From a bacterium UBP6_UBA1209 (lineage in GTDB: Bacteria; UBP6; UBA1177), in contig DBXP01000004.1 in assembly GCA_002309575.1 (NCBI GenBank), forward strand, positions 4,077 to 68,076: DNA of 64,000 nt. The letters are read 5' to 3'. A program made the position numbers and the translations under genes. Below the pieces are notes generated by a model. It ran no database searches, was not told the origin of the DNA, and saw only the letters and a program-made list of their open reading frames with translations. Within the stretch, counting starts at the first letter, position 1; each line of letters begins with the position of its first letter. Shown piece after piece: positions 13,271 through 48,376 of the stretch.

Positions 13271-13345
13271 ATTACACCATGTTTTTAAGGCTCATTTTTC
13301 ACGATTTCGCTGGTGATTGTGGAACAAAAATAAATGGGACAGATC

Positions 13346-13804: not shown

Positions 13805-13805
13805 G

Positions 13806-14576: not shown

Positions 14577-14578
14577 TT

Positions 14579-15499: not shown

Positions 15500-15826
15500 A
15501 AATAACTCCTCCAAAATTTCCGCATAAATTAAGGTATAAGGTGAAAAAGTCAAACAGGTTTTTATGGGGTTGAAGAGTTGAGATAAGCGCTTTTCAATTT
15601 AAGGACTCAGACATTCTTTGGTAAAGACCAATATCAGGATTATTGCCTGTTTTCTACAAGCAGATCCGGAAAGAGGCTATATCGACATTTAAGACCACGC
15701 TGATGAAGAAAAAAAACGAAACTTACAATAACTAAAAAAAAACGGCACTTTGTGCAATTAAGCTATTGTGTTTTTGTTTAATTTGCCGAAAATAGAATGT
15801 TTATGGTCATTTTTTAGGAGGATATC

Positions 15827-25685: not shown

Positions 25686-26965
25686 GAGCTTTAATACTTG
25701 GCTTGGGCATTTCAGGTCTCTCCTCTGCCCGTTTCCTGAAGGGAAGGGGTTACGAGGTCTATATTTTTGATGACAACAAGGAGACTTTGGAAAAAAATTC
25801 AAAGGATTACGAAGTTTACGACCAGAGCCTTAAATACGACCTGGCGATAATCAGCCCCGGAGTTCCCGCGACTCATCCGGTCGTCCGCAAAATTTCAGAG
25901 CAGGGTACCGAGGTTATCGGAGAGATGGAGCTTGCCGGAAGGTATATCACCGGCGAGAAGGTCATCGCAGTGACCGGTACAAACGGAAAGTCGACAACAG
26001 TCTCTCTGGTCCATTCGTTTCTGAGTGATGCCGGCTTCAAGTCGTTCCTCTGCGGCAACATCGGCGAACCAGTGATCAACGGCGTCGGGAAGGGCTGCGA
26101 CTTTCTGGTCATCGAAATCAGCTCGTTCCAGCTTGAGACTCTGAAAAGCCTGCATCCGGATGTCGCGATGGTCCTGAATGTGACTCCGGACCATCTGGAC
26201 CGCTACAACGGTTTTGAGGATTACCGCAATACGAAGCTCAATCTGCTCAGATTGTTGAAAAAGGATGGTTTCGGTGTTGTTGGAAAGGGTGTCGTCGAAG
26301 AGTCTGACGGCATCTGCTGCGATCTTAAAACCTTTGCCGTCGAGGGGACCGAAGATATATCATACGACGGAAAATACGTTTCAAAAGGTGATCTCAGGCT
26401 CGATATAAGCGGAATAAAGCTTACCGGCCACCACAATGTCGAAAATATCATGGCTGCTCTTCTGGGCGTCGGGAAGTGGGTCAGGGATCCCCTGAAAATG
26501 AGGAAAACTTTAGAGGATTTCAAGCCTCTGGCTCACAGGACGGCGCTGGTCGACAGCTTCCATGGTGTCGATTTTATTGATGATTCCAAAGGTACCAACG
26601 TCGGTGCCGTTGAAAAGTCGCTTGCCGGACTGCCGGACGGAAAGGTCGTCCTGATACTCGGAGGAGTCGATAAAGGCGGAAGTTACGAGCCGATCCGTCT
26701 CCTTGCCGAGACAAAGTGCAAGGGGATAGTGCTCATCGGGGCAGCGCGTGAGGTCATCCGCCCCTTCTTTGCAGGTTTCCCGAATACGGTCGATGCCGAG
26801 TCGATGAGCGATGCCGTCGAGAAGGCGTTCGAACTTGCAAAAAATGACGGGGTGGTGCTTTTTTCTCCTGCCTGCTCAAGTTTCGACTGGTACAGGAACT
26901 ACAAGGAAAGAGGCGTCGATTTCGTTAATAAAGTTGCTGATCTGAAGGCAAAAATCAGAGGCTGA
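25682..26965 (+). CDS. murD: UDP-N-acetylmuramoylalanine--D-glutamate ligase
   Basis: N-terminal Rossmann GLGISG and VTGTNGKSTT. Overlaps murF stop (ATGA); no mraY in between. Confidence 0.9.
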   Translation: MRALILGLGISGLSSARFLKGRGYEVYIFDDNKETLEKNSKDYEVYDQSLKYDLAIISPGVPATHPVVRKISEQGTEVIGEMELAGRYITGEKVIAVTGTNGKSTTVSLVHSFLSDAGFKSFLCGNIGEPVINGVGKGCDFLVIEISSFQLETLKSLHPDVAMVLNVTPDHLDRYNGFEDYRNTKLNLLRLLKKDGFGVVGKGVVEESDGICCDLKTFAVEGTEDISYDGKYVSKGDLRLDISGIKLTGHHNVENIMAALLGVGKWVRDPLKMRKTLEDFKPLAHRTALVDSFHGVDFIDDSKGTNVGAVEKSLAGLPDGKVVLILGGVDKGGSYEPIRLLAETKCKGIVLIGAAREVIRPFFAGFPNTVDAESMSDAVEKAFELAKNDGVVLFSPACSSFDWYRNYKERGVDFVNKVADLKAKIRG

Positions 26966-26969
26966 GAAG

Positions 26970-28064
26970 ATGGACAGAGCTGCAAAAACATACTTTATGA
27001 TCGCCTTTTTGCTGACAGTCATCGGTATGATCATGGTTTTCAATGTCAAGGTCTTCAACAGTGTCTCTGCCGATGAGATCGCTTTAGTGCAGCTTCGTTC
27101 TTTACTTCTCAACATGCTTATCGCGGCTGCAGTCTTTACTGTGACCTGCACGGTAAAGCTGGAGATGCTCAGAAACAACATTATCTGGATACTTCTGCTG
27201 GGTTTCGTCCTGCTTGTGCTGACCTTTCTGATAGGAACGACCGTAAACGGTTCGAAGCGCTGGATCGACCTTCGTGTCATGATGCTTCAGCCGTCGGAGC
27301 TGATCAAGCTTATCGGTGTTTTTTATCTCAGCTCGATCATCGAAAGCAAAATCAAAAACGGCGAAAAGCTTAAGGAGCTCTTTTTCCCGCTGGTCATTAT
27401 GGGGCTTTATGCAGGGCTCATTGCGATTGAAGACCTGGGAACCGCGACCCTGATAGGCTTGATCACTCTTTTGATGCTTTTCATCGCTGGTTACGACAAG
27501 AGATCGATGTGTATTATTGCTATTTTGGGGATAATCGCCTTTACCGGTTATGTCTTTATGGACGGAAAGTCTTACCGTGTAATGCGTATGCAGAGCTTCA
27601 TAAATCCCTGGGCTGTCGCCAAGAGCTGGGGTTACCAGAATGTCCAGTCGCTTGCCGCGATAGGGATGGGAGGTCTTTACGGAAAGGGTTTCGGCAACTC
27701 GACAAAGAAGATCACGGTCCTGCCGGAGGCCCATACTGATTTCATTTTTGCAGTGTTCTGCGAGGAGTTCGGACTTGTCGGCAGCATCGTTTTGATCCTG
27801 CTGTTTGTCGGTTTGCTCGTATTGGGTGTCTATTTTGCCCGAAAGATGCGAAATAGATTTAACTTTTATTTGATTTCAGGGTACACTCTGCTGATCGGTA
27901 TTCAGACGCTGGTCAACCTCGGTGTCGTTACATCGAGCTTGCCGAACAAAGGTGTCCCGCTGCCGTTTATAAGCTACGGCGGAACATCACTTGTCGTGAA
28001 TTGGGCGATTATTGGATTTGTACTGAATGCTGTAATGTCTGACAAGAAAGAGCAAATCAGTTAG
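26970..28064 (+). CDS. ftsW: SEDS-family peptidoglycan glycosyltransferase FtsW
   Basis: 10-TM SEDS protein with conserved GVPLPFISYGGTSL and PEAHTDFIF. Confidence 0.9.
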   Translation: MDRAAKTYFMIAFLLTVIGMIMVFNVKVFNSVSADEIALVQLRSLLLNMLIAAAVFTVTCTVKLEMLRNNIIWILLLGFVLLVLTFLIGTTVNGSKRWIDLRVMMLQPSELIKLIGVFYLSSIIESKIKNGEKLKELFFPLVIMGLYAGLIAIEDLGTATLIGLITLLMLFIAGYDKRSMCIIAILGIIAFTGYVFMDGKSYRVMRMQSFINPWAVAKSWGYQNVQSLAAIGMGGLYGKGFGNSTKKITVLPEAHTDFIFAVFCEEFGLVGSIVLILLFVGLLVLGVYFARKMRNRFNFYLISGYTLLIGIQTLVNLGVVTSSLPNKGVPLPFISYGGTSLVVNWAIIGFVLNAVMSDKKEQIS

Positions 28065-28076
28065 CAGAGGGAGGTT

Positions 28077-29189
28077 TTGATGGAAAATCAGATAACGACA
28101 AAGGCGATCGTGCTTTTGACAGGTGTGAACAGCAGGGAGCGTTACAAGGCGGCTATTTCCGTTGCCGGAGATCTGCGCTTCCGCGGGATTACCCCGATAA
28201 TTGCCCTCCCGAAGAATTCGATCTACGAGCGCTTCTTTACCGAAAGAGGGTACGAGGTGGTCCCGACGCCGGTCTTCCCTGAGAGCAAGGGGCTTCTGCT
28301 GAAAATTGCCAAGGCTCTTAAGATGGGGCAGAGCATTCAGGATTTTTTCAAACTTTTTGAGATCAAGTCTATAAGCGGCGTTTTCAGTTTCGGCGGGAAT
28401 ATATCTCTTCCGGCGCTCGAGGCGGCTGTGCGCCTTCCGAAGAAGGTCAAGGTCTTCCTTGTCGAGCAGAATGCCGACATTGCAAAGGTCCACGAGGAGT
28501 TCGTTTCAAAGGCGACGAGGATCTACCTGCCGTTCCAGGAGATGGAGGCGAAGCTGAATCTTCCGAATTCTTTTGTCTCCGGTATTCCGGTCGAGCGCGA
28601 GGTCCTGAGATCCGAGCCGATGGAATTTACCACAACCAAGAAAAAACTGCTGGTCCTGGGGTGCCGGAAGGATACCAAAGAGTTCAACGACATGGTCTTC
28701 TACCTTCTGGACAACTACTCTGAGATCAAGAGGGATTTCTACATAATCCAGGAGACTGGAGAGAGGGATGTCGCGTCTATCAGCCGTTACTACGAAAAGC
28801 AGAAGATCGACGCTACATGCGAGATGTTCTACGACAACCGCGGTCCCTGTCTGAAGGCAGCCGATATAGTTATTTCGCGTCCGAACAGCGATGTCATTGC
28901 CGAGATAACGGCGCTCAAGAAGCAGGCGATATACATCCCGCTTCCGCAGTCGAAGGATTACTTCCAGAAGCTGAACGCGCTGCAGCTGGCCAAGAGCGGC
29001 GCAGCATATTTGATCGAGGACAGGACAACGGGAACTCCGGCGAAGAGGTATAAAAAGCTGATGCAGATCCTCAGCTCCTATACACGCCAGGAGGATGTAA
29101 TGAAGGATAAGCTCGCCGAGATGGATTTTGAAAATTCATCGAAACGTATTGCCGGCGATATTGAATTTCTGCTGCAGGGAAAGCACTGA
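28077..29189 (+). CDS. murG: MurG-like glycosyltransferase (divergent; both glycine-rich loops degenerate)
   Basis: Canonical position. C-terminal half aligns to MurG (FGGNISLPALEAA...EQN; RPNSDVIAEITALKKQAIYIPLPQSKDYFQKLNALQLAKSGAA). But GGTGGH is replaced by TGVNSRE and GGSQG by GCRKDTKE. Confidence 0.75.
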   Translation: MMENQITTKAIVLLTGVNSRERYKAAISVAGDLRFRGITPIIALPKNSIYERFFTERGYEVVPTPVFPESKGLLLKIAKALKMGQSIQDFFKLFEIKSISGVFSFGGNISLPALEAAVRLPKKVKVFLVEQNADIAKVHEEFVSKATRIYLPFQEMEAKLNLPNSFVSGIPVEREVLRSEPMEFTTTKKKLLVLGCRKDTKEFNDMVFYLLDNYSEIKRDFYIIQETGERDVASISRYYEKQKIDATCEMFYDNRGPCLKAADIVISRPNSDVIAEITALKKQAIYIPLPQSKDYFQKLNALQLAKSGAAYLIEDRTTGTPAKRYKKLMQILSSYTRQEDVMKDKLAEMDFENSSKRIAGDIEFLLQGKH

Positions 29190-30547
29190 TGCACATTCAT
29201 TTTATGGGAATAGGCGGGAGCGGGGTCAGCGGTCTTGCGGTTTTTGCCGCATCTCTCGGGTATAAAGTCTCCGGCTGCGATTCCTGTGAAAGCGACTATT
29301 TCAAGATGGTGAAGGGAAAGGGGATCCCATGCATGAAGGGGCATTCCGCCTCCCATCTCGACGGGGTAGATCTGCTGGTCCGCTCCAGCGCTGTCCGCCT
29401 TGACAACGAAGAGGTCGTCGAGGCAGAAAAACGCGGCATCGAGGTCAAAAGACGCGGTGAGTTCCTCGCATACCTTCTCAATGACCGCTATACGATAGGT
29501 GTCGGCGGAAGTCACGGAAAGACCACAACGACCTGGATGATCTTCAGACTTCTGAGAGAGGCCGGAGTCAGCGCATCGATCTATGCCGGCGGCAAAAGCG
29601 GCGGATTTTCGAGCATCTGCGATTCCGAGCCGTTTGTCGTCGAGCTTGACGAAAGCGACGGCTCCATCTTTCTGGCGAAGCCTGACTCTTTGGTTCTTAC
29701 CAACCTCGAATACGAGCACGCCGACTACTATAAATCGCCGCTTGAGATGCTGAAGCGTTTTGAGGATTACCTGCACTCCTACAGGCAGAAAAGCCTTGTG
29801 GTAGGCCGCGGATTCGACCTGAGCGACAGGATCTACGACGATTTTTCACCCCTTTCGTTCCCAAGCAGGGGTGAGGTCGAGAACGGCGAGCCATTCCAGA
29901 ACAGCGACGGCAGCGGCTTTACTTTTTCGAACGGAAAGCTCTGGTTCGAGCCGCACGGCAGGAAGGTCTGCGTCGGGCGTCTGAATGAGCCTCTGCACAT
30001 CCTGCAAAACAGGTCGGCGGCGCTGCTTGCAGCAAACAACTATCTTGGATCACAAGGAAGATCCATGCCGGATATCGATTATGAATCGTTTTGGAACAAT
30101 CTTCCGAAGGTCGACCGCCGTTTTCAGGTTGTCGGCAGCTACCACGGACTTTCGCTTGTTGACGACTACGCCCACCACCCGAGCGAGATCCGTGCAACGA
30201 TCGAGCAGGCAAGAGGGGCTTACCGCAGTTTTTACCTGATTTTCCAGCCGCACCGCTACAGCCGTTTTTCAGCCTTTTATGACAGGTTCGTAGAGACTCT
30301 GAAGGGTGTCGAAAACCTTTTTGTGCTGCCGGTCTACTCGGCCGGAGAGGAGAACCTGGATGTCGATTCAGAGAGCCTGGTTAAAGAGCTCAACGGTCTC
30401 GGCAATAATGCAAAATATTTTGAAAGTGTAGATCAAGTTGTTGATTTTATTAAGTTAAATGTTGATTCGTTCAAGGCTTCCGCGATCGTTTCAGTCGGCG
30501 CTGGAGACTTGAACCGTGTATTCAGAGAGCTTTTGGGGGCAAGGTGA
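29189..30547 (+). CDS. murC: UDP-N-acetylmuramate--L-alanine ligase
   Basis: MHIHFMGIGGSGVSGLA and GSHGKTTTT. ATG overlaps murG TGA by 1 nt. Confidence 0.95.
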   Translation: MHIHFMGIGGSGVSGLAVFAASLGYKVSGCDSCESDYFKMVKGKGIPCMKGHSASHLDGVDLLVRSSAVRLDNEEVVEAEKRGIEVKRRGEFLAYLLNDRYTIGVGGSHGKTTTTWMIFRLLREAGVSASIYAGGKSGGFSSICDSEPFVVELDESDGSIFLAKPDSLVLTNLEYEHADYYKSPLEMLKRFEDYLHSYRQKSLVVGRGFDLSDRIYDDFSPLSFPSRGEVENGEPFQNSDGSGFTFSNGKLWFEPHGRKVCVGRLNEPLHILQNRSAALLAANNYLGSQGRSMPDIDYESFWNNLPKVDRRFQVVGSYHGLSLVDDYAHHPSEIRATIEQARGAYRSFYLIFQPHRYSRFSAFYDRFVETLKGVENLFVLPVYSAGEENLDVDSESLVKELNGLGNNAKYFESVDQVVDFIKLNVDSFKASAIVSVGAGDLNRVFRELLGAR

Positions 30548-31383
30548 AGCTTAAAAAGGCAGCGAATATTTCAAGCCTGCTGACGATCAGGGTTGCGGAC
30601 GCAGAGTGCGATCTCTATTTCCCCGACGTCGTTGACGACATCCTGCTCTTTACGGATCAGTATGATGATTACTACGTCCTTTCGGGCGGAAGCAACATCA
30701 TCGCCGGAAAAATTGAAAAACCGGTCCTCTACATGGGAAATGTCATTTCCGGCAGCGATACGGATGACCTCGGCGAATTTTCGGTGAAGGTCTTTATGCC
30801 GTCGTGGGTCTCGATAGCCTCGCTTTTGAACTATTCGATAGCGAACGGGCTTTCCGGTGTCGAGTTTATGGCAGGGATCCCCGGGACGGTTGGCGGCGCT
30901 CTGGTCGGAAACGCTGCTCCGGCGGGCGATTCGTGGGATGACATCGTTGCGGTGATTTACATCGTTCAGGACGGCGAGATCTACCCGCTTGTCCCCGAGT
31001 ACGGCTACAGAACGCTGAAAAACAGGCCGGAAAGGCCGTTTGTGGTCTACGGCTGCGAGCTGATTCTGGTCAAGGACACTCCGGAGGGGGTGCGTTCGCG
31101 CATCCTGCACTACCTCTCGAAGCGTCCGAGGATAAAAGGTCACAGCGCCGGTTCGCTCTTTAAAAACCCGGAAGGCGAGAAGGCCGGAAGGCTGCTCGAG
31201 GCAGTCGGGATGAAGGGGTTTTCGGTTGGCGGAGCCAAGCTCAGCGACAACCACGCGAATATTGTTGTGAACAGCGGCGAAGGCTGTTTCGATGACTTTT
31301 GCCGCCTCAGAGATACGGCGATCGAAAGGGTACGCGAGCGTTTCGGTATAACGCTTGAACCCGAGGTGAAATTTTGGAGTTAG
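30544..31383 (+). CDS. murB: UDP-N-acetylenolpyruvoylglucosamine reductase
   Basis: GGSNII FAD-binding motif and GGAKLSDNHANIVVN. GTG start overlaps murC stop. Confidence 0.85.
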   Translation: MKLKKAANISSLLTIRVADAECDLYFPDVVDDILLFTDQYDDYYVLSGGSNIIAGKIEKPVLYMGNVISGSDTDDLGEFSVKVFMPSWVSIASLLNYSIANGLSGVEFMAGIPGTVGGALVGNAAPAGDSWDDIVAVIYIVQDGEIYPLVPEYGYRTLKNRPERPFVVYGCELILVKDTPEGVRSRILHYLSKRPRIKGHSAGSLFKNPEGEKAGRLLEAVGMKGFSVGGAKLSDNHANIVVNSGEGCFDDFCRLRDTAIERVRERFGITLEPEVKFWS

Positions 31384-31400
31384 ACTTTTCGGAGGTCGGG

Positions 31401-32306
31401 ATGAGTAAGCTGGACAAAAATTTAAAGATTGCGGTCATAGCGGGCGGAATGTCCGACGAGCGTGAGGTGAGCCTTCAGACAGGCAGAATGATGTACGAAG
31501 CCCTGGTCAAAGAGGGTTACGCAAACGTCAGCTTTGTCGATGTCGATTTCACTCTTGACCAGAAGCTGAGAGAGATCAAGCCTGATGTCGTTGTCAACGG
31601 CCTGCACGGAAAGTACGGAGAGGACGGTACGGTTCAGGGCCTTCTCGAGATGATGAAGATCCCTTACACGAATTCAGGCGTCGCGGCAAGCGCAGTCGGA
31701 ATGAACAAGATCCTCTGCAGGGCTGTCATGGAGGAGTGCGGGATCAGGACTGCACCCGGCAAGACGGTGGTTTTCACAGAGGATCTGCCGGCTCCGTTCG
31801 ACTATCCGTTTGTCATAAAGGATCCGGTAAACGGTTCCAGCTGCGGAGTCTACATCGTCAAGAGCGACGAGGAGTGGAGCAGTGTCAAGCCTGAGCTCAA
31901 GGTCGGCAAAGTCTATCTCTGCGAGAAGTTTTTCAAGGGCAGGGATATCGACGTCGCGGTGCTCGACAACAAACATCTTGGCAACGTGGCTATCCTTCCG
32001 ACCAACGAATTTTACGATTATGACGCGAAATACAACAGCGATTCGACGGTTTACATCGTCGATCCCGAGCTTGAACCGGATGTCAGGGCCGAGATCGAGT
32101 CTGCTGCCGTGAAGCTTCACAATGCTATCGGCTGCAAGGGTGTGACGAGAAGCGATTTCCTTGTCGACGGCAAGGATTACGTGATGCTCGAGATCAATAC
32201 TCTTCCCGGAATGACCGGCCACTCGCTTGTTCCGATGATCGCGAAGAAGAGTGGCATAAGCTATATCGAACTGCTTGAAATGTTAATTGCCGAAGCTTTG
32301 GGATAA
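31401..32306 (+). CDS. ddl: D-alanine--D-alanine ligase
   Basis: KIAVIAGGMSDEREVSL and ATP-grasp motifs. GGAGG SD precedes ATG 31401; the listed ORF starts earlier in frame. Confidence 0.9.
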   Translation: MSKLDKNLKIAVIAGGMSDEREVSLQTGRMMYEALVKEGYANVSFVDVDFTLDQKLREIKPDVVVNGLHGKYGEDGTVQGLLEMMKIPYTNSGVAASAVGMNKILCRAVMEECGIRTAPGKTVVFTEDLPAPFDYPFVIKDPVNGSSCGVYIVKSDEEWSSVKPELKVGKVYLCEKFFKGRDIDVAVLDNKHLGNVAILPTNEFYDYDAKYNSDSTVYIVDPELEPDVRAEIESAAVKLHNAIGCKGVTRSDFLVDGKDYVMLEINTLPGMTGHSLVPMIAKKSGISYIELLEMLIAEALG

Positions 32307-32307
32307 A

Positions 32308-33180
32308 ATGAAGTCAATACTTAACATTTTGAAAATGCTGGGATATTTCCTCGGCGTCCTGCTGCTGACGATCCTGCTCAACGAGAGCTACTATGCAGCG
32401 GACAATATGATCGCCTACATAAAAGGCAGAGATGTTTTTGTCGTTTACCCCGAGAAAATCGATATTTACGGCAACCACAGGCTTTCAAACCAGAAGGTTC
32501 TGCAGCTTGCGGGGATAGAAAAGCCGGTGAATTTCCACGACATAGATACCTCAAAGCTTGAAAACAACCTGAAAAAGAACAGCGGCTGGGTCAAGGGCGC
32601 GTGGGTCCAGAAGAGCTATCCGGACTACGTAAAAATCACCGTGGAAGAGCATGTGCCGCAGATAATCGTCAACAGCAGAAAGTCCCGTGAGGGCAGGGAG
32701 TACAACTCTTTGTGGCTTGCCGACGGTACAGGCAGGCTCTTCATGCGGGCCGAGGCTTCGACCTACACCGAGAATCTGCCGGTTTTGTTTTTTGACTATG
32801 TTTCAGTGGACGAGGAGCATCAGAAAGAGAATATGATCGCACGCGAAAAAAACATCAAGGATGCGCTGATGATAGTTTCGATCTGGAAGGAGTTCTCGCC
32901 GGAATGTGATCTTGAAACGATGAGTTTCGAGGCGCTTCAGGGCTACTCCGTAAGATGCCGCAAAGGTGAAAAGCTTACGACCGAGGTCATACTCAGGGAC
33001 GACCGCACCGTCGACGACTGGAGGCGGATGATCAAAAAGTTCAAGGAGACCTCAGGTCTGCTCTACGGCCAGAACAAATGGGCCGGCGAGTTCATTTTTG
33101 ACGATGCGGACAATACCGACGGATTCCGCGCATACCTGGGCAAGGTCGTGCAGAATGTCAGTAAAAAGGGAGAAATTTGA
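32308..33180 (+). CDS. ftsQ: cell division protein FtsQ/DivIB-like (TM + POTRA)
   Basis: Single N-terminal TM, ~290 aa, canonical slot between ddl and ftsA. ATG 1 nt after ddl TAA. An alternative TTG start lies at 32287. Confidence 0.7.
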   Translation: MKSILNILKMLGYFLGVLLLTILLNESYYAADNMIAYIKGRDVFVVYPEKIDIYGNHRLSNQKVLQLAGIEKPVNFHDIDTSKLENNLKKNSGWVKGAWVQKSYPDYVKITVEEHVPQIIVNSRKSREGREYNSLWLADGTGRLFMRAEASTYTENLPVLFFDYVSVDEEHQKENMIAREKNIKDALMIVSIWKEFSPECDLETMSFEALQGYSVRCRKGEKLTTEVILRDDRTVDDWRRMIKKFKETSGLLYGQNKWAGEFIFDDADNTDGFRAYLGKVVQNVSKKGEI

Positions 33181-34406
33181 TGCCAAGAGAGAATCTTATT
33201 GTCGCGCTTGATGTGGGCACGGATAAGGTCGCAACTCTCGTTGCGGTTCAGGACGAGACCGGCTTGAAATATGTCGGCAAGGGTGTGGCGGACAACGAAA
33301 GCGGCATGATCGCCGGCAACGTTGTCAATCTCGAAGCAACGAGCAGCGCCATCAGGAATTCGGTCGCGCAGGCGGAAAAGGTCTCTTCAAAGATAATCAA
33401 ATCGGTCTACGTAAGCATCTCCGGTGAGCAGATCCGCTCGACATCCGGCAGAGGTGTCGTCACGATCCGCGGCAGCGAGGTCGCGCAGGTCGACATCGAC
33501 AACGTGATCAGCCAGGCGATGACTCTCAACATCTCTGGTGACCGCGAAATCGTCAATGTCGAGATCGGCGAGTTTGTCGTCGACGGCAGGACCGGGATCC
33601 GCAATCCCAAAGGCATGGCGTGCAAAAAACTTGAAGTCGAGGTGCTGATCCTCACCGCGTCGATGACGATGCTCAGAAACCTCGTGAAGGCGGTCGAGGA
33701 TGCGAAACTTCAGGTCGCCGGACTGCTCGTGAGCGGCATTGCAAGCAGCTGGGCAGTGCTCGAGGAGGATGAAAAAAAGCTCGGCGTCGCACTCGTGGAT
33801 ATCGGCGGCGGTTCGGCAGACATCGCGATCTACAGCAAGGGCGATCCGATATTTACGGCATCGGTCCCGCTCGGCGGCCGCAACATAACCAACGACATCA
33901 GCAGGGTCTTGAAGATCCCGCCGCAGGAGGCGGAAAAAATCAAGTGCGACAAGGGCGATGTCAACAGCGAAAATATCCCCGAGACCGAAGAGGTCGATGT
34001 TATTGAGATCGGGACCAACAAAAGCTGTAAAAAGAAGGTCAGGCAGCTTTCGGCGGTTCTCACCCCCAGAGTCGAGGAGATCCTCATCGAGGTCAAAAAG
34101 CGTCTTCAGGAGAGCCGCAAGGAGAATATGATCCAGACAAACGTCGTCATTACCGGCGGCACTGCGAATCTGAAGAATATCGAGCAGCTGGCGAGTGAAA
34201 TTTTTGAACAACCTGTCAGGATCGGAAGGCCTAATGTGGACGAAAAGGGAACGGGATTCCAGGATGTTCTCTGCTCCACGTCGTTTTCGACGGCAGTCGG
34301 CATGGTAAACTACTTCGCGAGCCGCGACAGGGTGGTCTTCGCAAAGGAGAGTGAGAGCATTATATCCAAAATTATCAACTACTTAAAACAACTTTTTATA
34401 CTATAG
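33177..34406 (+). CDS. ftsA: cell division protein FtsA
   Basis: Actin-fold motifs LIVALDVGTDKV and VDIGGGSADIAIY. Confidence 0.95.
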   Translation: MMPRENLIVALDVGTDKVATLVAVQDETGLKYVGKGVADNESGMIAGNVVNLEATSSAIRNSVAQAEKVSSKIIKSVYVSISGEQIRSTSGRGVVTIRGSEVAQVDIDNVISQAMTLNISGDREIVNVEIGEFVVDGRTGIRNPKGMACKKLEVEVLILTASMTMLRNLVKAVEDAKLQVAGLLVSGIASSWAVLEEDEKKLGVALVDIGGGSADIAIYSKGDPIFTASVPLGGRNITNDISRVLKIPPQEAEKIKCDKGDVNSENIPETEEVDVIEIGTNKSCKKKVRQLSAVLTPRVEEILIEVKKRLQESRKENMIQTNVVITGGTANLKNIEQLASEIFEQPVRIGRPNVDEKGTGFQDVLCSTSFSTAVGMVNYFASRDRVVFAKESESIISKIINYLKQLFIL

Positions 34407-34416
34407 CGGGGCGGAA

Positions 34417-35637
34417 ATGGGCATTCAGGCGGAAAAGAGAGATGTGGTCAGGCAGGCTGAGATCGGTGTTATCGGTGTAGGCGGCTGCGGCGGGAACGCA
34501 GTCGGAATGATGAGCAAAAAACGCAAGGAAGACGGGGACGAATCTGTATTGAGGACAACGCGGATCATAGCCGCGAATACGGATCTGCAGGCGCTTGACG
34601 ACGATGAGATCAAGCTCTGCGACAGCATTATCCAGCTCGGGCCGAATTTGACTCACGGCCAAGGTTCAGGCGGTCGTCCCGACACAGGAAAGGGTGCTGC
34701 CGAGGAGAGTCTTGTCAGCATCGCCGAAAAGATCAAGGGGCTCGACATGCTCTTTATCACAGCCGGAATGGGCGGCGGGACAGGTACCGGAGCATCGCCG
34801 ATCATCGCCAAAAACGCCAAAGAAAACGGCTGTTTGACAGTTGCTGTCGTTACCACTCCCTCCAAATACGAAGGCAAGAGGAAGATGCGTCTTGCAAACG
34901 AAGGCATCGAAAACCTCAAAAAATATGTGGATTCTCTGATCATTATCTCGAACGATACGCTTTTTGACTACGCCGGCGACGAGGAGTCTTCCGACATGTT
35001 CAAAAGAAGCAACGAGGTCCTTATCGATTCCGTTGAAAATATAACGACGCTCATAGCGAAACGCGGTGTTATGAATATCGACTTCGCCGATGTCAAAAAC
35101 ATCATGTCAGGCATAGGCTTGACCCTGATTGTGAGCGGACACGCCGAAGGCTCTGCCCGTCAGGCGGTCGAGGACGCCCTCAATTCCCAGCTTCTGGAGG
35201 GCTACACGATCAAGGGCTCGTCGCGTGCGATCATCTACTTCTCCGGAAACATCCCGGGCAGGGATCTCAAGGATGCGTGCGAATATTTCCTGCAGGAGAT
35301 AGGCAACGACGACCTTGAATATAAGCAGGGGCTTTGTCCTACTTCCGACAGTATGATCACGGTTTTCATCATTGCCGCGGCGACCAGAGTCGACAATGAG
35401 CTCAAAAGCTTTCTTCCCGAAGTAAACGAAAAGGTGCAGAGCGACATAACATCGTTTGCCGATGTTCCGCCGATACCGATGATCGGTCCCGAGGTAAAAC
35501 ATCTCTCTCAGCCGATTGCAAATATTCAGGCGACAAGTGTTCCGATATCCAAAAATTCACGTAAAGTCAGCATCGAAGAGTTCGATATCTTTGATATTGT
35601 CGAATCTACGGCAGAAAAGGTCGAGATCAAGAAGTAA
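34417..35637 (+). CDS. ftsZ: cell division protein FtsZ
   Basis: Tubulin signature GVGGCGGNAV and GGGTGTGASPIIA. Confidence 0.95.
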   Translation: MGIQAEKRDVVRQAEIGVIGVGGCGGNAVGMMSKKRKEDGDESVLRTTRIIAANTDLQALDDDEIKLCDSIIQLGPNLTHGQGSGGRPDTGKGAAEESLVSIAEKIKGLDMLFITAGMGGGTGTGASPIIAKNAKENGCLTVAVVTTPSKYEGKRKMRLANEGIENLKKYVDSLIIISNDTLFDYAGDEESSDMFKRSNEVLIDSVENITTLIAKRGVMNIDFADVKNIMSGIGLTLIVSGHAEGSARQAVEDALNSQLLEGYTIKGSSRAIIYFSGNIPGRDLKDACEYFLQEIGNDDLEYKQGLCPTSDSMITVFIIAAATRVDNELKSFLPEVNEKVQSDITSFADVPPIPMIGPEVKHLSQPIANIQATSVPISKNSRKVSIEEFDIFDIVESTAEKVEIKK

Positions 35638-35648
35638 CCTTCATTTTT

Positions 35649-35678
35649 CCTCAAAATTTCGGATATCTCCTTTTGAGG
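35649..35678 (+). terminator. hairpin 12 nt after ftsZ stop (8-bp stem CCTCAAAA/TTTTGAGG, 14-nt loop); weak terminator candidate
   Basis: Perfect inverted repeat 35649-35656 / 35671-35678 followed by an A/T-rich tract. No strong U-run. Confidence 0.3.
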
Positions 35679-35707
35679 AATAATCTTAAAATATTGGTTT
35701 AAACATG

Positions 35708-35741
35708 CCTTGTTTTCAAGCGTTTTTCTGCTATAATTCTC
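35708..35741 (+). promoter_or_regulatory. sigma70-like promoter copy 1 (TTGTTT-16nt-TATAAT), 34/34 nt identical to copy at 37429
   Basis: -35 TTGTTT at 35710-35715 and -10 TATAAT at 35732-35737. Exact 34-nt duplicate of 37429-37462. About 40 nt upstream of the MNT gene. Confidence 0.5.
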
Positions 35742-35777
35742 AGGTTTTTGCGTTTTATGACTTAAAAAGAGGTCGTC

Positions 35778-36080
35778 ATGGCAAAAGAAATAATGAGTGT
35801 TCAGGAAATAATGTCAAAAGTAAAACCTTTGGCTGACAGATACAAAATCAAGGAAGTTTATCTTTTCGGCTCTTATGCCAGGGACGAAGCCGATTCCGAG
35901 AGTGACATCGACCTGTTAGTATACGGCGGGGAAGGGTTCAAACTGACGAGAGTTTTCGCGTTCGCCGAAGAGTTACGCGAACTTCTTGACAAAAAAGTCG
36001 ATGTCTTTGAAATTCACGAGATCAATGAAGGCAGCGATTTTTACAAAAACATTATGAAGGACAGGATTCTTGTGGCATGA
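35778..36080 (+). CDS. nucleotidyltransferase (MNT/MntA-type) antitoxin
   Basis: Minimal NTase motif LFGSYARDEADSESDIDLLV. 100 aa. Confidence 0.85.
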   Translation: MAKEIMSVQEIMSKVKPLADRYKIKEVYLFGSYARDEADSESDIDLLVYGGEGFKLTRVFAFAEELRELLDKKVDVFEIHEINEGSDFYKNIMKDRILVA

Positions 36081-36412
36081 AGTATTCTGACAAACAACGC
36101 CTGCAGAAAATATATGAGTATGCAACCAGACTCTGCGACTGCATAAAAGAGAAAAACATCACGAAAGAAAGCCTTTTGAATGACTATTCGTTGCAATGGC
36201 TCGTAACCACGCCGCTTTACAACATCGGCGAGCATGTCTACTATCTCTCGTCAGAATTCAAAAAACAGCATTCGGATATCGAGTGGAATCTGATCGCTGG
36301 ACTCAGGCACAGACTTGTGCATGATTACGACGGTACGAACTGGAGTCTAATCAGTGATGTCGTGTTTGAGGAAATTCCCGCGTTGATCGAAAAATTGAAA
36401 AATCTGGTTTAG
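36077..36412 (+). CDS. HEPN/DUF86 (HepT-type) toxin
   Basis: R-x4-HxY HEPN motif RHRLVHDY. 111 aa. Overlaps the MNT stop (ATGA). Confidence 0.85.
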   Translation: MKYSDKQRLQKIYEYATRLCDCIKEKNITKESLLNDYSLQWLVTTPLYNIGEHVYYLSSEFKKQHSDIEWNLIAGLRHRLVHDYDGTNWSLISDVVFEEIPALIEKLKNLV

Positions 36413-36445
36413 ATTTAAGAAACAATAAGGAAACCAGACACATTC

Positions 36446-36470
36446 GTTCATTCCAACGGGGGACAAAATG
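36446..36470 (+). promoter_or_regulatory. conserved translation-initiation leader copy 1 (GTTCATTCCAACGGGGGACAAAATG)
   Basis: 23/25 nt identical to 37829-37853. Includes the SD (GGGGGA) and the ATG of the Sel1-repeat gene. Confidence 0.4.
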
Positions 36471-37343
36471 AAAAAAATTGTGATTTTTGTTGTTGTTTTG
36501 CTTGCGATGACATCGGTTTTCGCTCAGATGCCTGAAACAGACCAAGAGGCTTGCGAATATGCCAGAAACAACGACAATGCCAAGAACTGGCTTGAATATA
36601 TAGGCAAATTTCCAAAAGGAACGTGCCTTGCCGAAGCTCAATACAGTCTCGGTCTTATTTATCAACAAGGAAACGGAGTTCCTCAAGACTCTGCGGAAGC
36701 CTTTAAATGGTATAAGAAATCAGCAGAACTCGGCAACATTCATGCCCAGAACAATTTGGGACGTATGTATTTCAACGGAGAAAGTGTCCCACAAAACTCT
36801 GAAGAAGCCTTCAAGTGGTACAAGAAAGCAGCCGAACAAGGAAACACTCAATCCCAATATAATCTCGGAGTTATGTATGTTAATGGTCAGGGAATTCCCA
36901 AGAACTTTGATGAAGCAATAAAATGTTTTTTTAACGCAGCGGAAAGTGGTTTAGCTGCGGCACAAAACGAGATAGGAATCATGTACTACTTCGGTGAAGG
37001 TGTTAAACAGGACTATCAAACAGCTGTGAAATGGCTTAAACTGGCAGCAGAACAAGGTTATGCTCCGGCTCAATTCAATTTTGGACGTATGACTTTTAGC
37101 GGGGAAGGAATCCAGCAAAACTACGCAGAAGGTATAAAATGGATAACTAAATCGGCTGAACAAGGTTATATGAAAGCTCAAATCACTTTAGGAGCTATAT
37201 ATACTGACGGAAAAGTAGTCCGGCAGAATCTTGCGGAGGCAAAAAAGTGGTTCAAATATGCTGCTGACCAGGGTTCAGACAAGGCAAAATCCTATCTTAT
37301 GAAAATTGAAGCTGCGGAAAAAGCGGCAGAGAAAAATAAATAA
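36468..37343 (+). CDS. Sel1-like repeat (SLR/TPR-like) secreted protein
   Basis: Signal peptide MKKIVIFVVVLLAMTSVFAQ. At least 7 Sel1 repeats (AQYSLGLIYQQGNGVPQD.AEAFKWYKKSAEQG...). Confidence 0.85.
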   Translation: MKKIVIFVVVLLAMTSVFAQMPETDQEACEYARNNDNAKNWLEYIGKFPKGTCLAEAQYSLGLIYQQGNGVPQDSAEAFKWYKKSAELGNIHAQNNLGRMYFNGESVPQNSEEAFKWYKKAAEQGNTQSQYNLGVMYVNGQGIPKNFDEAIKCFFNAAESGLAAAQNEIGIMYYFGEGVKQDYQTAVKWLKLAAEQGYAPAQFNFGRMTFSGEGIQQNYAEGIKWITKSAEQGYMKAQITLGAIYTDGKVVRQNLAEAKKWFKYAADQGSDKAKSYLMKIEAAEKAAEKNK

Positions 37344-37428
37344 AAACTAGTTGAAAATATTCAAGGACAAGAATACGCAAAATTTAAGTAAGAGTAGGAA
37401 TTTTGCTCCGAAGCAAGATTTGTTTCAC

Positions 37429-37462
37429 CCTTGTTTTCAAGCGTTTTTCTGCTATAATTCTC
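37429..37462 (+). promoter_or_regulatory. sigma70-like promoter copy 2 (identical 34-nt duplicate of 35708-35741)
   Basis: -35 TTGTTT at 37431-37436 and -10 TATAAT at 37453-37458. Followed by GGGAGG SD and the small ORF. Confidence 0.5.
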
Positions 37463-37490
37463 GGGTTTTTTGATGGGAGGAGATATTAGC

Positions 37491-37721
37491 ATGATGCGAA
37501 AAGAATTCTGTGAAAAAGACGGGATATTGATTACTTATACCGATAACGATGTCTGCTTCGAGGAATGCAGCACGGCAAAAGCTGTATTGCTGGGAAACGA
37601 CGGAACAGTAATTCATTCAAATTTTGATCCCGAAAAGAACGATTTTTTCAAGGAATATCTCAAAAAGATTTATCCGGCAATCACGACATTCCGCTCGCTT
37701 GATTCTCTGGAGAGTGCATAA
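37491..37721 (+). CDS. hypothetical small protein (76 aa; no recognisable domain)
   Basis: ATG 37491 lies 10 nt after GGGAGG (37475-37480). Cys-containing (CEKDG...CFEEC). Stop TAA overlaps the next ATG (TAATG). The listed ORF begins at TTG 37470. Confidence 0.45.
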   Translation: MMRKEFCEKDGILITYTDNDVCFEECSTAKAVLLGNDGTVIHSNFDPEKNDFFKEYLKKIYPAITTFRSLDSLESA

Positions 37722-37798
37722 TGCCTGAATTCGAATTTGTGAATTTCTGGAAAGATTTCCACGGCGGTGAAGTCCGCTTCAAGGATAAGGAAAACTGA
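37721..37798 (+). CDS. hypothetical micro-protein (25 aa) translationally coupled to upstream small ORF
   Basis: TAATG overlap with the preceding ORF. Peptide MPEFEFVNFWKDFHGGEVRFKDKEN. Confidence 0.35.
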   Translation: MPEFEFVNFWKDFHGGEVRFKDKEN

Positions 37799-37828
37799 TT
37801 CCAAAACCTGACAATGTGTCGGGATAAT

Positions 37829-37853
37829 GTTCATTTCAACGGAGGACAAAATG
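37829..37853 (+). promoter_or_regulatory. conserved translation-initiation leader copy 2 (GTTCATTTCAACGGAGGACAAAATG)
   Basis: 23/25 nt identical to 36446-36470. Includes the SD and the ATG of the lipoprotein gene. Confidence 0.4.
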
Positions 37854-39419
37854 CAGAGAAATTCAATAATTATGCTGTTTCTTGCATTGTTTTTCCTTGT
37901 CTCCTGTTCCTCCTCGCATTCTTCCTCAGATTCCGATGCGGTGCCAGACTCAGATTCGGACAATTCTGGAACTGCTGATGCCGATGTTTCGGAAGACTCG
38001 GATCCTGTTGATGATTCCGACAAAACACCGGATGCAGATTCTGATGCGGACAACGATTCCGATACGCCGGAAACTGTTGAATGTCTTGATCTGCGCTACA
38101 ACGAAAACACGATCAAAACACCTTTCCCGTTCAAAGATGCCAACGGCAAACCGACTTTCTGCCGCCCAGGCTGCGACACGCCGACAGAAAACGATCCGCA
38201 GTGTGTCCGCAACATCTGGGATTGGGAGAACTGGGAAGTGTATCAGCGTTACCTCGAAGCACAGGATAAAGACCAAAACCAGACAACGGAACGTGCCTGT
38301 TATCCGTGGCCCTGTGTTTTGCCGGATATGCACGCACAAACAAAAGCTGAACTCAGCACATTTGTCAGCAGTTGCGATCGCTTACTTACTGTGAATGGTT
38401 TTTCTGTCACAATGGGAACAGTGTGGTCAAATGGTATGTATGACGGAGTTGTCGGAATTCAATTTCAGCACCATGGCAGCATGATAGTTGAATATGATCC
38501 CGAAAGAGATGAATACATGACTTTGGGTCAAAACAGAGCTTTATCATTCAACGAAGGTCGTTATGTTGTGGAGGTTTATGACAGGATTCCCGGAGATTAT
38601 CCAAACGACTACAAAGTTTTTACAGTTTCTGTGTTGCGGACAGAAAAAGGTTATTTCTATGAACTGATTCGTAATAATTATGAACACAGAGATAAATTTT
38701 CCGATCCGCCGTTTGCTGGAAAGAACTGGGCTTTGCTGCGTCTGACCGGAGGAAAAACGGTTTATGCTTCTTCCAAAGATTGGGAATGGCATGAGATCGG
38801 CGGGATCAACAACTACGCCGGAGAAGGCAACATTGTCGGAGACCACCTGACATTCATCACGAACAACCGCGAGCTTTATTACTGCGACCTGCGTAAATAC
38901 CCGAAGCATATTGATGAATGTTTCAAACTCAACCGCAAGTATGAAGACGGCTATGAAGAGCTTGGTCACAGCCCCAGGATCGACTTGGAAAACGAATACC
39001 GCGTTGTTTACAATGTTTACGGAACACCGACATTTGTTGAGGTTGACTTGAAGGATTTGAGTGACCCCCAATACACAGAATACAAAGTTGAAAAAAGCAG
39101 ACCGCAAGCCGCTTTATTCGGACCCAGCATGTTGATTGGAAACAGGGTGGTTTATATCGAATCTGATCCAAACGACGACATCGGCTGTTTTTACCGTTTT
39201 GACAAGCAGAAAACATACTGCCAAAAAGAAAAAACTTTTTCGACAGATCCGTCTGATCTGATGGGCTACAATGTTTTCTGGGGAAAGTGGCATCTTTGGA
39301 AACGCATAACTCGGCCGACAGCCATAATCAGAGATTTAGAGTGTTACTGCAATGAAACCGGAATTTGTCCTTTGGAACCTGCGACGGAAGAGGAGCTCAA
39401 TCGCAATACGACGAAATGA
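37851..39419 (+). CDS. hypothetical lipoprotein with D/S-rich acidic linker and Cys-rich globular C-terminal region
   Basis: Start MQRNSIIMLFLALFFLVSC (lipobox LVSC). SDSD-rich low-complexity region. No recognisable domain. Shares a 5-prime leader with the Sel1 gene. Confidence 0.75.
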   Translation: MQRNSIIMLFLALFFLVSCSSSHSSSDSDAVPDSDSDNSGTADADVSEDSDPVDDSDKTPDADSDADNDSDTPETVECLDLRYNENTIKTPFPFKDANGKPTFCRPGCDTPTENDPQCVRNIWDWENWEVYQRYLEAQDKDQNQTTERACYPWPCVLPDMHAQTKAELSTFVSSCDRLLTVNGFSVTMGTVWSNGMYDGVVGIQFQHHGSMIVEYDPERDEYMTLGQNRALSFNEGRYVVEVYDRIPGDYPNDYKVFTVSVLRTEKGYFYELIRNNYEHRDKFSDPPFAGKNWALLRLTGGKTVYASSKDWEWHEIGGINNYAGEGNIVGDHLTFITNNRELYYCDLRKYPKHIDECFKLNRKYEDGYEELGHSPRIDLENEYRVVYNVYGTPTFVEVDLKDLSDPQYTEYKVEKSRPQAALFGPSMLIGNRVVYIESDPNDDIGCFYRFDKQKTYCQKEKTFSTDPSDLMGYNVFWGKWHLWKRITRPTAIIRDLECYCNETGICPLEPATEEELNRNTTK

Positions 39420-39446
39420 CTTCGACCTTTGACAGGGGAGTCCCTC

Positions 39447-40214
39447 TTATTTCTTCGATTTTTTGTTGTACTTTTTGAGGAACTCCTCGGCGAGTTCCAT
39501 ATATTTTTTTGAGCCGATGGAGGAGATGTCGTAAAGAGAAATCGGTTGCCCGAAGCTCGGTGATTCGCTGAGCTTGACGTTTCTCGGAATTACGGTTTTG
39601 AAGACCAGGTCGCCGAAGTGCTCGCGGACGTCGTTTTCGACTTCAAATGTGAGTTTCAGGCGCTTGTCGTACATCGTGAGCAGAATCCCGTAAATCTTTA
39701 TGTTTTCGTTAAATTCCTGAATGGCTTCAAGTGTTTCCAGGATTCTTGAAAGTCCTTCGAGAGCGAAGTATTCGCACTGGATCGGAATCAGGACGCCGTC
39801 ACAGGCAACCATGTTGTTGACTGTCAGAATGTTGAGCGAAGGCGGTGAATCGATGATTATGTAGTCGAATTTGTCCTTGACTTTTGCGAGCGTCTCCTTC
39901 AGCACGAATTCGCGGTTTTCGACATCAAGAAGCTCGATTTCGGCTCCGGTGAGGTCGGAATTGCAGGGGATCACCTTCAAAAACGGCAGTTCGGTGTTGT
40001 AAATCGCCGTTACGTCGGATGACGCCATCATGTCGTAAATGGTTTTGAAGGATTTCTCCTTGATCGAGCTCATCGAGGTCGCGTTTCCCTGCGGATCCAT
40101 GTCGATAAGCAGGGTCTTTTTCTCGAAAATGCTGAGCGAAGCAGCAAAATTTACGGCGGTCGTTGTCTTGCCTACACCGCCCTTCTGGTTTATGACCGAA
40201 ATGATTTTTCCCAT
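39447..40214 (-). CDS. parA: ParA/Soj-family ATPase (no adjacent parB)
   Basis: Deviant Walker A KGGVGKTT. 255 aa. Last gene of the purD-engB operon; the next gene is convergent. Confidence 0.9.
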   Translation of the reverse strand: MGKIISVINQKGGVGKTTTAVNFAASLSIFEKKTLLIDMDPQGNATSMSSIKEKSFKTIYDMMASSDVTAIYNTELPFLKVIPCNSDLTGAEIELLDVENREFVLKETLAKVKDKFDYIIIDSPPSLNILTVNNMVACDGVLIPIQCEYFALEGLSRILETLEAIQEFNENIKIYGILLTMYDKRLKLTFEVENDVREHFGDLVFKTVIPRNVKLSESPSFGQPISLYDISSIGSKKYMELAEEFLKKYNKKSKK

Positions 40215-48274: not shown

Positions 48275-48376
48275 TTTTTTCTCCCAAAATGGTGAAAGGT
48301 GGTTAAAGTGCCAACCGGCATGTGATTTGTATTTGAATAATGTTCTACGTCAAGTTTCATTTGAACCGGAGGCAAA

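Follow-up and report, generated by a model that had tools for sequence, protein, structure and literature searches.

Probable recombination at shared promoter and leader sequences around toxin-antitoxin-type genes of uncultured ruminant-gut bacteria

Putative mobile promoters (PMPs) are defined as upstream regions, within about 150 nt of the start codon, whose alignment exceeds 50 nt and has an identity of at least 80% (Matus-Garcia et al. 2012, PMC3488235). PMP families are for the most part small, consisting of two members, and the genes behind them tend to be of hypothetical or accessory type (Matus-Garcia, Nijveen & van Passel 2012, PMC3488235; PMC3575422). The erp genes of Borrelia burgdorferi are expressed together, and their variants arise through recombination among paralogs (PMC10016077). 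The DUF4160/DUF2442 pair (DhiTA) has been validated as a toxin-antitoxin (TA) pair in Dickeya, with DUF4160 as the toxic member (PMC8198452). Here we describe a 3.7-kb AT-rich island that lies between ftsZ and a convergent parA in a 64-kb stretch of a bacterial assembly (GCA_002309575.1, contig DBXP01000004.1; the whole 64,000 nt are called the window below). The island is made up of two head-to-tail modules, A and B, and the closest known concept is the PMP (PMC3488235).

We favour a reading, with a probability of about 0.6, in which the island belongs to a recombining family of modules, each consisting of a promoter, a TA slot, a leader, and an exported-protein gene; the non-coding pieces would act both as expression signals and as homology joints. 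The four parts of a module are a 42-nt promoter core, a slot with a TA-type pair, an unstructured leader with a strong Shine-Dalgarno sequence, and the exported-protein gene, which encodes either a beta-propeller lipoprotein paralog or a Sel1-repeat protein.

The promoter and leader repeats

The promoter core is a 42-nt direct repeat (35708-35749, copy A; 37429-37470, copy B; features of the island are on the forward strand), identical at 41 of 42 positions and without a mismatch over the first 34 nt (35708-35741 and 37429-37462). A pattern search of the 64 kb recovered these two copies and no others, even with three mismatches allowed, and none was found in 100 shuffled sequences. Pairwise alignment showed sharp edges: similarity opens abruptly at CCTTG and stops after GGTTTTT, with unrelated sequence outside. 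The core contains the -35 hexamer TTGTTT (35710-35715 in copy A), a 16-nt spacer, and TATAAT preceded by TGc, a perfect extended -10 element (TGnTATAAT; 35729-35737); the extended -10 string TGNTATAAT occurs only at the two core copies in the whole window. Short de Bruijn-graph contigs start or stop within the 42 nt, as expected for a repeat longer than k, and thus provide an independent sign that the repeat is real. From its consensus, position, and orientation, the core is probably a sigma-70-type promoter with an extended -10 element that fires toward the module genes, and it may well be a strong, extended-10-dependent one. Copy B continues into an untranslated region (UTR) of a payload-specific type with the Shine-Dalgarno sequence GGGAGGAG, the two together spanning 37429-37485.

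The second repeated element is the leader, whose cores at 36446-36470 and 37829-37853 are identical at 23 of 25 positions, Shine-Dalgarno sequence and ATG included (36446-36477 and 37829-37860 in a longer repeat call). It too is present twice in the window with three mismatches allowed, and was absent from shuffled sequences. Leader A as a whole covers 36418-36470 and ends in a GGGGGA Shine-Dalgarno sequence and ATG; leader B covers 37802-37853, has a GGAGGA Shine-Dalgarno sequence and ATG, and carries the small 7-bp hairpin (CCTGACA/TGTCGGG) of the lipoprotein-type leader, with a BLASTN match of 88% to another locus, L021, over 37802-37915. In all contexts compared, the leader precedes a protein with a signal peptide. 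A weak leader-like match at 48356-48379 (6 mismatches in 24) stands before an open reading frame (ORF) that starts MEAAERLV; it is probably due to chance, since this ORF lacks a signal peptide.

A riboswitch, attenuator, or other structured leader RNA was considered and rejected. Rfam gave no match to the region at E ≤ 1 apart from one chance snoRNA, and at gathering score the whole window yielded only two tRNAs elsewhere. Fold z-scores of the shared UTR and the leaders were -0.5 to +0.5, near zero relative to shuffles, and that of the MNT-specific UTR was -2.1, with 11 of 200 shuffles equally stable. A generic terminator scan predicted none between the genes of a module or in the spacer between them (U2, 37344-37428), and one after the lipoprotein gene: a terminator-like hairpin with a T-rich tail (39434-39447), which closes the island on its right side, ahead of the convergent parA (39447-40214; identified by Pfam). 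At the left end, a 14-nt hairpin follows ftsZ (35643-35684; ATTTTTCCTCAAAA / TTTTGAGGAATAAT), its 3' arm lying within an imported remnant of a lipoprotein tail; no T-run follows it, so read-through from ftsZ into module A is possible.

Recurrence and probable exchange of the modules

The island is found at the same place in a sister species (locus L031; FtsA 93% and FtsZ 84% identical), and BLASTN comparison of the two gave a mosaic. The dcw core through promoter A (26001-35749) is 84.5% identical, the slot A payload (35750-36417) has no similarity, the stretch from leader A through Sel1, spacer, and promoter B to s76 (36418-37731) is 97.5% identical, and the lipoprotein gene (37730-38865) is 85% identical. 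The Sel1 proteins are 97.6% identical. In place of the nucleotidyltransferase and HEPN genes (mntA and hepT) of the window, slot A of L031 holds a DUF3791 gene, an N-terminally truncated DUF3990 gene, and a 68-aa gene, and the limits of the swap coincide with the end of the promoter core (35749) and the start of the leader (36418). Slot B of L031 contains s76 followed by an intact 94-aa DUF4160 gene. The identity pattern indicates that the block 36418-37731 was probably exchanged much more recently than the species split.

Core copy A is identical at 42 of 42 positions between the two species, for which the chance at an 84.5% background is ∼0.845^42, roughly 1e-3. This identity, and a 16-nt spacer that is as invariant across species as the hexamers, would also be expected if a single regulator or sigma factor recognized the whole 42 nt, so that selection for co-regulation kept the copies alike and the mosaics were incidental. 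The erp loci of Borrelia provide a precedent, as a shared promoter/operator can co-regulate lipoprotein paralogs there (PMC10016077). Selection for binding leaves unexplained, however, why the same core stands before unrelated genes at unrelated loci, and it accounts neither for a 97.5% block against an 84.5% background nor for the scars described below. We consider a regulon unlikely as the explanation; it is also compatible with recombination as an added layer and is then not a true alternative, and putative co-regulation of the two modules is plausible. Strains of the L001 type carry the same derived T in both promoter copies (TATAATTTTC); in the window and in the sister species, each copy reads TATAATTCTC. 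This suggests gene conversion between the two copies, 1.7 kb apart.

We scanned GTDB, one genome per species, for the exact 28-mer of the core from -35 through -10. It was present in five other species representatives, all of them metagenome-assembled genomes (MAGs) from ruminant guts and one labelled Spirochaetales; in none does it adjoin ftsZ. A scan of JGI metagenomes with an exact 23-mer added nine stretches, eight of which have the full core; the ninth, L025, shares a 29-nt stretch only. All matches were of ruminant-gut origin, and two of them adjoin ftsZ: L030 (which is the locus of the window itself) and L031. In at least ten further ruminant-gut contigs the core thus occupies non-orthologous sites, in each case a short distance ahead of genes. 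The fetched loci of the other carriers have no housekeeping genes in common with the window. After duplicate removal 20 distinct contexts remained, and in every one the core faces downstream genes and ends ∼20 to 40 nt before a start codon, with a Shine-Dalgarno sequence in between.

These counts bear on the suggestion that the element is a generic dispersed repeat, such as a repetitive extragenic palindrome, a miniature inverted-repeat transposable element, or an outward promoter derived from an insertion sequence, with no special link to the genes. The element is indeed short, sharply bounded, and present in several genomes. Against this, there are only two copies in 64 kb and one or two per fetched locus elsewhere; the element keeps its orientation and its distance to the next start codon in 20/20 contexts; no terminal inverted repeats were seen by eye, and no Rfam family or plasmid match was found; and the element is always accompanied by TA, defence, or lipoprotein genes. 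A generic repeat is thus very improbable.

The genes behind the core vary widely. MntA/HepT genes occupy this position in the present species; s76, with or without a DUF4160 gene, in the present species, L031, L020, L022, and L029; a DinJ-like gene with a YafQ toxin gene in L024, L028, and L021; DUF3791 with DUF3990 in L024, L026, L021, and L031; and a truncated antitoxin gene followed by a GmrSD-type restriction gene in L027. In L018, L019, and L023 a leader variant and a lipoprotein gene follow the core directly; from this we infer that promoter and leader are probably the lipoprotein family's own signals. Tandem modules of promoter, small genes, leader, and lipoprotein gene recur in L021, L024, and L031, and those of L021 and L024, each with a TA pair and a lipoprotein paralog, lie at another chromosomal site than the window's and have opposite module orders. 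Over 56-57 nt, copy B is 96 to 98% identical to the copies located ahead of the DUF3791 genes of L021, L024, and L026.

Sequences on the two sides of the core are shuffled as well. Three classes of upstream flank could be told apart: U1, the last codons of a lipoprotein paralog (...CPLEE-stop) with a spacer; U2, the spacer after Sel1; and U3, the tail of a Cys-rich secreted gene, called gene X here. U1 occurs with MNT/HepT or DUF3791, U2 with s76 or DinJ, and U3 with DinJ, DUF3791, or a lipoprotein gene directly, so that flank and payload classes assort independently across the 42-nt core. The 10-15 nt after the core, Shine-Dalgarno sequence included, co-vary with the payload; the piece that is universally shared is therefore the promoter proper. 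In the window, 35663-35707 forms the left island edge, a lipoprotein-family 3' end remnant (codons for ...CP(L/F)EE-stop) and its downstream spacer, class U1, fused to the 3' flank of ftsZ, as seen in BLASTN and in side-by-side sequences; 35663-35720 aligns at 88-90% with the end of a lipoprotein paralog, spacer, and promoter start in L018, L021, and L026. A stretch related to the window's U2 stands ahead of one promoter copy of L021, and truncated promoter fragments and lipoprotein-tail remnants were found in L018, L021, L024, and L027.

Three loci allow cargo to be compared at a given position. L018 and L027 share a syntenic position, after an xerD-like gene, ispD, and a membrane-protein gene, and differ in the cargo behind the promoter: two lipoprotein paralogs in L018, and a GmrSD gene, a RhuM-like gene, and a gene for a 307-aa lipoprotein in L027. 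L019 has the 307-aa lipoprotein and ribBA downstream as in L027, yet its promoter heads a short lipoprotein gene.

Most of what an earlier note on this DNA had proposed for the architecture holds. The 34-nt promoter that it reported as identical in both modules (TTGTTT-16-TATAAT) matches at 34/34 and is part of the longer 41/42 repeat, and the shared leader is as it described (23/25, with Shine-Dalgarno sequence and ATG). The self-comparison that it proposed for further copies found just two of each element in the window, which is far from the dozens of unrelated loci that it named as the mark of a generic repeat. Its modular architecture is seen again in the tandem modules of other loci, its swapped payloads in L031, where DUF3791/DUF3990 replaces MNT/HepT exactly between promoter and leader, and the comparison with relatives that it asked for placed the cassette in all conspecific contigs and the L031 island, with a different slot A, at the same site. 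Its suggestion that the system is possibly mobile stands in part. The 97.5% block against an 84.5% core and the presence of the same promoter core in five GTDB species speak for movement; no transposase or integrase gene was found within 10 kb, and the movement would be limited to recombinational exchange.

Payload genes, exported proteins, and surroundings

The slot A payload consists of an mntA-like nucleotidyltransferase gene, the antitoxin of the pair (35778-36080; Pfam Polbeta/NTP_transf_2, E 2.5e-16; PADLOC PDC-S09), and a hepT-like gene for a HEPN RNase toxin (36077-36412; Pfam HepT-like, E 3.5e-15), which overlap by 4 nt (ATGA) at 36077-36080; both domains score above the Pfam curated cut-offs. 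The catalytic motifs of this family are RX4-6H in HepT and GSX10DXD in MntA. The translations contain the former as RX4H (RHRLVH, in the 111-aa HepT) and the latter as GSYARDEADSESDID (in the 100-aa MntA), so that the pair has the adjacency and overlap, the domains, and the catalytic motifs of the HEPN/MNT family. In PADLOC, the MNT protein and the DUF3791/DUF3990 pair fall among candidate phage-defence families.

Slot B contains two TAATG-coupled small ORFs (37491-37721 and 37721-37798), neither with a Pfam match. The first is s76, the partner gene of DUF4160, which encodes a conserved cytoplasmic protein of 76 aa as judged from homologs, alignment, and a structural model. Its 277 homologs (75-76 aa) have no precomputed Pfam domain, occur also in MAGs labelled Treponema, and are 70-100% identical across many ruminant-gut bacteria. 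C7, C22, C26, and H42 are invariant in the alignment and could form a metal site. The model (predicted local distance difference test, pLDDT, 86) has five strands and a helix and gave no significant match in the PDB; s76 had no Pfam or PADLOC match, and a likeness to DUF2442 did not emerge from Pfam at an E-value limit of 0.01.

The second ORF corresponds to the first 4 and last 21-22 residues of the intact 94-aa gene at L031 12036-12320, which matches DUF4160 (PF13711) at E 4.9e-11; the domain is not intact in the window ORF. By this comparison the 25-codon ORF is an in-frame deletion remnant of a DhiT-type toxin gene and not a gene in its own right. Internal in-frame deletions have repeatedly inactivated payload toxins or antitoxins: YafQ and DUF3990 of L021, the antitoxin of L027, and the DUF4160 of the window. 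In L021, YafQ is cut to 35 aa (3718-3825) and DUF3990 is truncated (1274-1519; promoter-oriented reverse-strand coordinates), and in L027 the DinJ-like gene is reduced to 39 aa (4152-4271). A decayed DUF4160 gene also follows s76 in L039 (∼4229-4340), a contig fetched through a Treponema-labelled s76 homolog.

Module A ends in a gene for a secreted Sel1-repeat protein (36468-37343; signal peptide and six repeats, Pfam Sel1, E 1.7e-61), and module B in a gene for a lipoprotein of 522 aa (37851-39419). The translation of the latter has the lipobox LVSC, a ∼60-aa acidic D/S linker, a Cys-rich region, and a ∼330-aa beta-propeller. Its AlphaFold model, built with 51 sequences, has a mean pLDDT of 70, with mostly 80-95 over the C-terminal 330 residues, and places the propeller behind a disordered acidic linker. 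Foldseek identified only generic propellers (amine dehydrogenase heavy chains, BamB, BtuG2, and TolB). All 279 homologs are named hypothetical and, like the window protein, have no Pfam domain; the beta-propeller lipoproteins are a lineage-restricted family.

Between conspecific strains, the 3' third of the lipoprotein gene (38500-39420) is the polymorphism hot spot of a 20-kb region, with 129 mismatches in 39000-39499, whereas the housekeeping genes beyond the island have 0-13 per 500 nt. In the last propeller blades, the window allele is nearer to a paralog from a different species, that of L024, than to the conspecific L001 allele. This variation fits mosaic recombination in a protein that may be under diversifying pressure.

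Homologs of the lipoprotein in three other loci have giant neighbours downstream, proteins of 1445-1815 aa with thrombospondin type 3 repeats (L036 11569-17016, L037 11528-16966, L038 13799-18136). The giant gene follows the homolog directly in L036 and L037 and comes after a 562-aa gene in L038, which hints that lipoprotein and giant TSP_3 protein form a surface complex. In L036 the two belong to an island (3812-17767) with a 1080-aa SIR2_2 protein, the lipoprotein homolog, and the 1815-aa TSP_3/Kelch protein, with a full valS on one side and, on the other, a further copy of the valS C-terminus (254 aa); the arrangement resembles an insertion in which the 3' end of valS was duplicated.

The earlier note had interpreted the cassette as a toxin-effector-type system, in which, as in polymorphic toxins, the secreted proteins would be effectors and the small genes immunity or accessory partners. 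Each module does couple small cytoplasmic proteins to an exported one, and the lipoprotein is hypervariable between strains. The small genes, however, belong to intracellular TA families (HepT/MntA, YafQ, DUF4160, and DUF3990), several of them decayed, and lie upstream of the exported-protein gene rather than downstream; the exported proteins have only Sel1 repeats or a generic beta-propeller and no toxin domain; and the same type of lipoprotein occurs with any payload or none. Polymorphic toxins are defined by a secreted protein that carries a toxin domain at its C-terminus, with the cognate immunity gene behind it; this arrangement was not found in the modules. We regard the toxin-effector interpretation as very improbable indeed, and neither it nor the count of two small ORFs as genes of module B is supported, the second ORF being the deletion remnant. 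The gene content was otherwise as the note described it, with MNT, HepT/HEPN, Sel1, and ParA recognized by Pfam, the small ORFs coupled, and a lipobox protein with a D/S linker, and so was an AT content above that of the dcw flanks: G+C is 0.38-0.48 in the cassette (mostly 0.39-0.44) and mostly 0.49-0.57 in the flanks.

The locus was recovered by exact-protein look-up on ruminant-gut metagenome contigs and in two MAGs, GCA_017539605.1 and GCA_016288405.1, and the same cassette is present on every conspecific contig. The dcw genes lie upstream of the island, and parA, a SurA-N-like gene, engB, purD, pta, and murJ downstream; the Pfam families of called genes within 10 kb on both sides are of the housekeeping type (mur, fts, parA, engB, purD, pta, and murJ). 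The plasmid collections contained no match to the island, and the phage collections a single one (150 nt at 71%, inside hepT, on an unannotated phage contig); these collections gave no evidence that the island stems from a plasmid or a prophage. The window ftsZ (34417-35637) has only two close clusters, at 100% and 84%, in a database of 5.8 billion proteins, with the next matches at 45% or below, and its precomputed Pfam matches include Tubulin and not FtsZ_C; the source organism may belong to a deep or fast-evolving lineage.

Proposed origin of the exchange and comparison with known systems

The favoured reading would account for these observations as follows. TA or defence genes would have been captured in the 5' UTR, downstream of the promoter and ahead of the leader, and would share a transcript with the gene for the exported protein. 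Functional selection together with gene conversion would hold the copies of promoter and leader close to identity, and these would then serve as short homology arms, 42-57 nt in the promoter and 25-53 nt in the leader. Through homologous recombination or gene conversion there, slot contents would be replaced, the order of modules changed, and modules carried to other loci and other species, with no need for a dedicated recombinase. The repeats with their recurrence and orientation, the payload swaps, the mosaic of identities, and the decay of toxin genes are observed; firing of the core, a single transcript per module, and a RecA-type mechanism of exchange are presumed here.

An integrase-type system, similar to integrons or to Xer/dif modules, would instead have the 42-nt core or a site within it targeted by a dedicated site-specific recombinase. 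The repeat edges are very sharp, as such a system would have them; module order differs between L021 and L024; and TA cassettes are typical cargo of chromosomal integrons. The island is also flanked by an imperfect ∼15-nt direct repeat of I-C-P-L/F-E codons from the lipoprotein tail (39380-39419 and 35663-35684). The right-hand copy forms the end of the window lipoprotein, ...CPLEPATEEELNRNTTK (39380-39419), where the family consensus is ...CPLEE-stop, and the repeat could have arisen by deletion of an upstream paralog or by integration of a circular module. Finally, one truncation point of the promoter (CCTTGTTTTCAAG|) recurs in L018, L021, and L024. On the other side, no integrase, transposase, or Xer-like gene was found among the called genes within 10 kb either side of the window locus, and inspection of the core by eye revealed no dyad symmetry of the attC or dif type. 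At the recurring junction the first 13 nt of the promoter (CCTTGTTTTCAAG) are fused to TAATCCGACGGCTG..., the tail of the Cys-rich secreted gene X (L024 6348-6431; L018 ∼700-750 and L021 ∼2500-2553, both on the minus strand). Since the same gene X tail follows the truncation in each of the three, a single inherited scar is suggested rather than repeated cleavage. The junction could be an ancient scar of rearrangement that was copied along with its module, or else a point at which breaks are favoured, and a dedicated recombinase seems improbable to us.

Several points weigh against the favoured reading. The same truncation point in three species could reflect a site-specific mechanism as well as one old copied scar, and RecA-dependent exchange would have only short stretches of homology to work with, 42-57 nt and 25-53 nt. 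Promoter activity and co-transcription of the modules are predicted from sequence; the -35 hexamer TTGTTT agrees with TTGACA at three of six positions only, for which reason the core went unflagged in a generic promoter scan. Both the promoter core and the leader are missing from most of the other lipoprotein homologs (L036-L038) and from the s76 genes in contexts of Treponema-labelled homologs (L039-L042), where unrelated sequence stands upstream, so the two elements are not intrinsic to either family as a whole. An empty ftsZ-parA site was not recovered among FtsZ relatives, because FtsZ homologs fall from 84% to 45% identity and the nearest outgroups carry a different gene after ftsZ; the insertion at this locus therefore cannot be dated, nor its junctions defined. 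Copy counts cover the 64-kb window and pieces of up to 22 kb, and the collection scans cover exact matches.

A stronger version of the recombining-module reading would make promoter and leader a dedicated, integrase-free platform for gene capture, in which the 5' UTR slot of surface-lipoprotein genes recruits and co-expresses TA or defence genes and modules circulate among distantly related rumen bacteria through both joints. We hold this to be doubtful. If it were true, genes of the abortive-infection type would be functionally coupled to variation of a surface protein, a possible phage receptor. The recombining-module reading itself, if it holds, would provide a sequence-defined case of promoter spread and reuse, in which a 42-nt promoter and a ∼50-nt leader double as recombination joints, and unrelated TA or defence genes are plugged ahead of variable surface proteins and exchanged between species without a mobile-element enzyme. 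The clear swap points and mosaic blocks could make this traceable in population metagenomes. The analysis also names a lipoprotein family and the widespread 76-aa s76 protein as module partners in uncultured ruminant-gut bacteria, and for annotation it makes the 25-codon ORF a toxin-gene remnant and the cassette something other than a toxin-effector locus.

Four described systems share features with the modules. The slot A pair agrees with HepT/MntA in gene order, ATGA overlap, Pfam domains, and catalytic motifs, and slot B retains a remnant of the DUF4160 toxin family of DhiTA (PMC8198452). Unlike in DhiTA (DUF4160/DUF2442), the partner is s76, which is upstream of the toxin gene and has no Pfam match to DUF2442, and unlike in both systems, the promoter here would be shared with unrelated pairs rather than pair specific and autoregulated. 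Chromosomal integron arrays likewise consist of small accessory units, many of them TA pairs, with short conserved non-coding repeats between them and a content that varies among close relatives. Here, in contrast, there is no intI within 10 kb, and each unit carries its own promoter, the repeat itself, whereas integron cassettes depend on Pc. An inverted-repeat search of 35000-40000 gave no boundary palindrome except the hairpin after ftsZ, no dedicated attC model having been run.

The erp, or upstream homology box, loci of Borrelia burgdorferi resemble the modules in that divergent surface lipoprotein genes share promoter/operator and leader or N-terminal coding sequence (PMC10016077). They occupy one allelic position on cp32 prophage plasmids and have the regulators BpaB, BpuR, and EbfC, whereas the modules are chromosomal, lie at different loci, carry TA pairs between promoter and leader, and have no known regulator. 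The two are without sequence relationship, and the likeness is one of analogy only.

With PMPs the modules share a highly similar short promoter sequence, upstream of non-homologous genes and with non-homologous upstream neighbours, within and between genomes. The downstream genes here are MNT, s76, DUF3791, DinJ-like, and lipoprotein genes, and the upstream neighbours ftsZ, Sel1, lipoprotein, gene X, and membrane-protein genes. In length, the intragenomic pair of copies A and B aligns over 42 nt at 98%, short of the 50 nt in the PMP definition, and the intergenomic comparison of copy B with L021, L024, and L026 reaches the 56-57 nt given above. The modules differ from PMPs in that the promoter is half of a promoter-plus-leader bracket around a replaceable slot, an architecture with which PMPs have not been catalogued. 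Their cargo is consistently of the TA or defence type, and the unit as a whole is linked to a gene for an exported protein. We therefore describe the arrangement as a two-joint bracket around a replaceable TA slot, tied to exported-protein genes in uncultured rumen bacteria.

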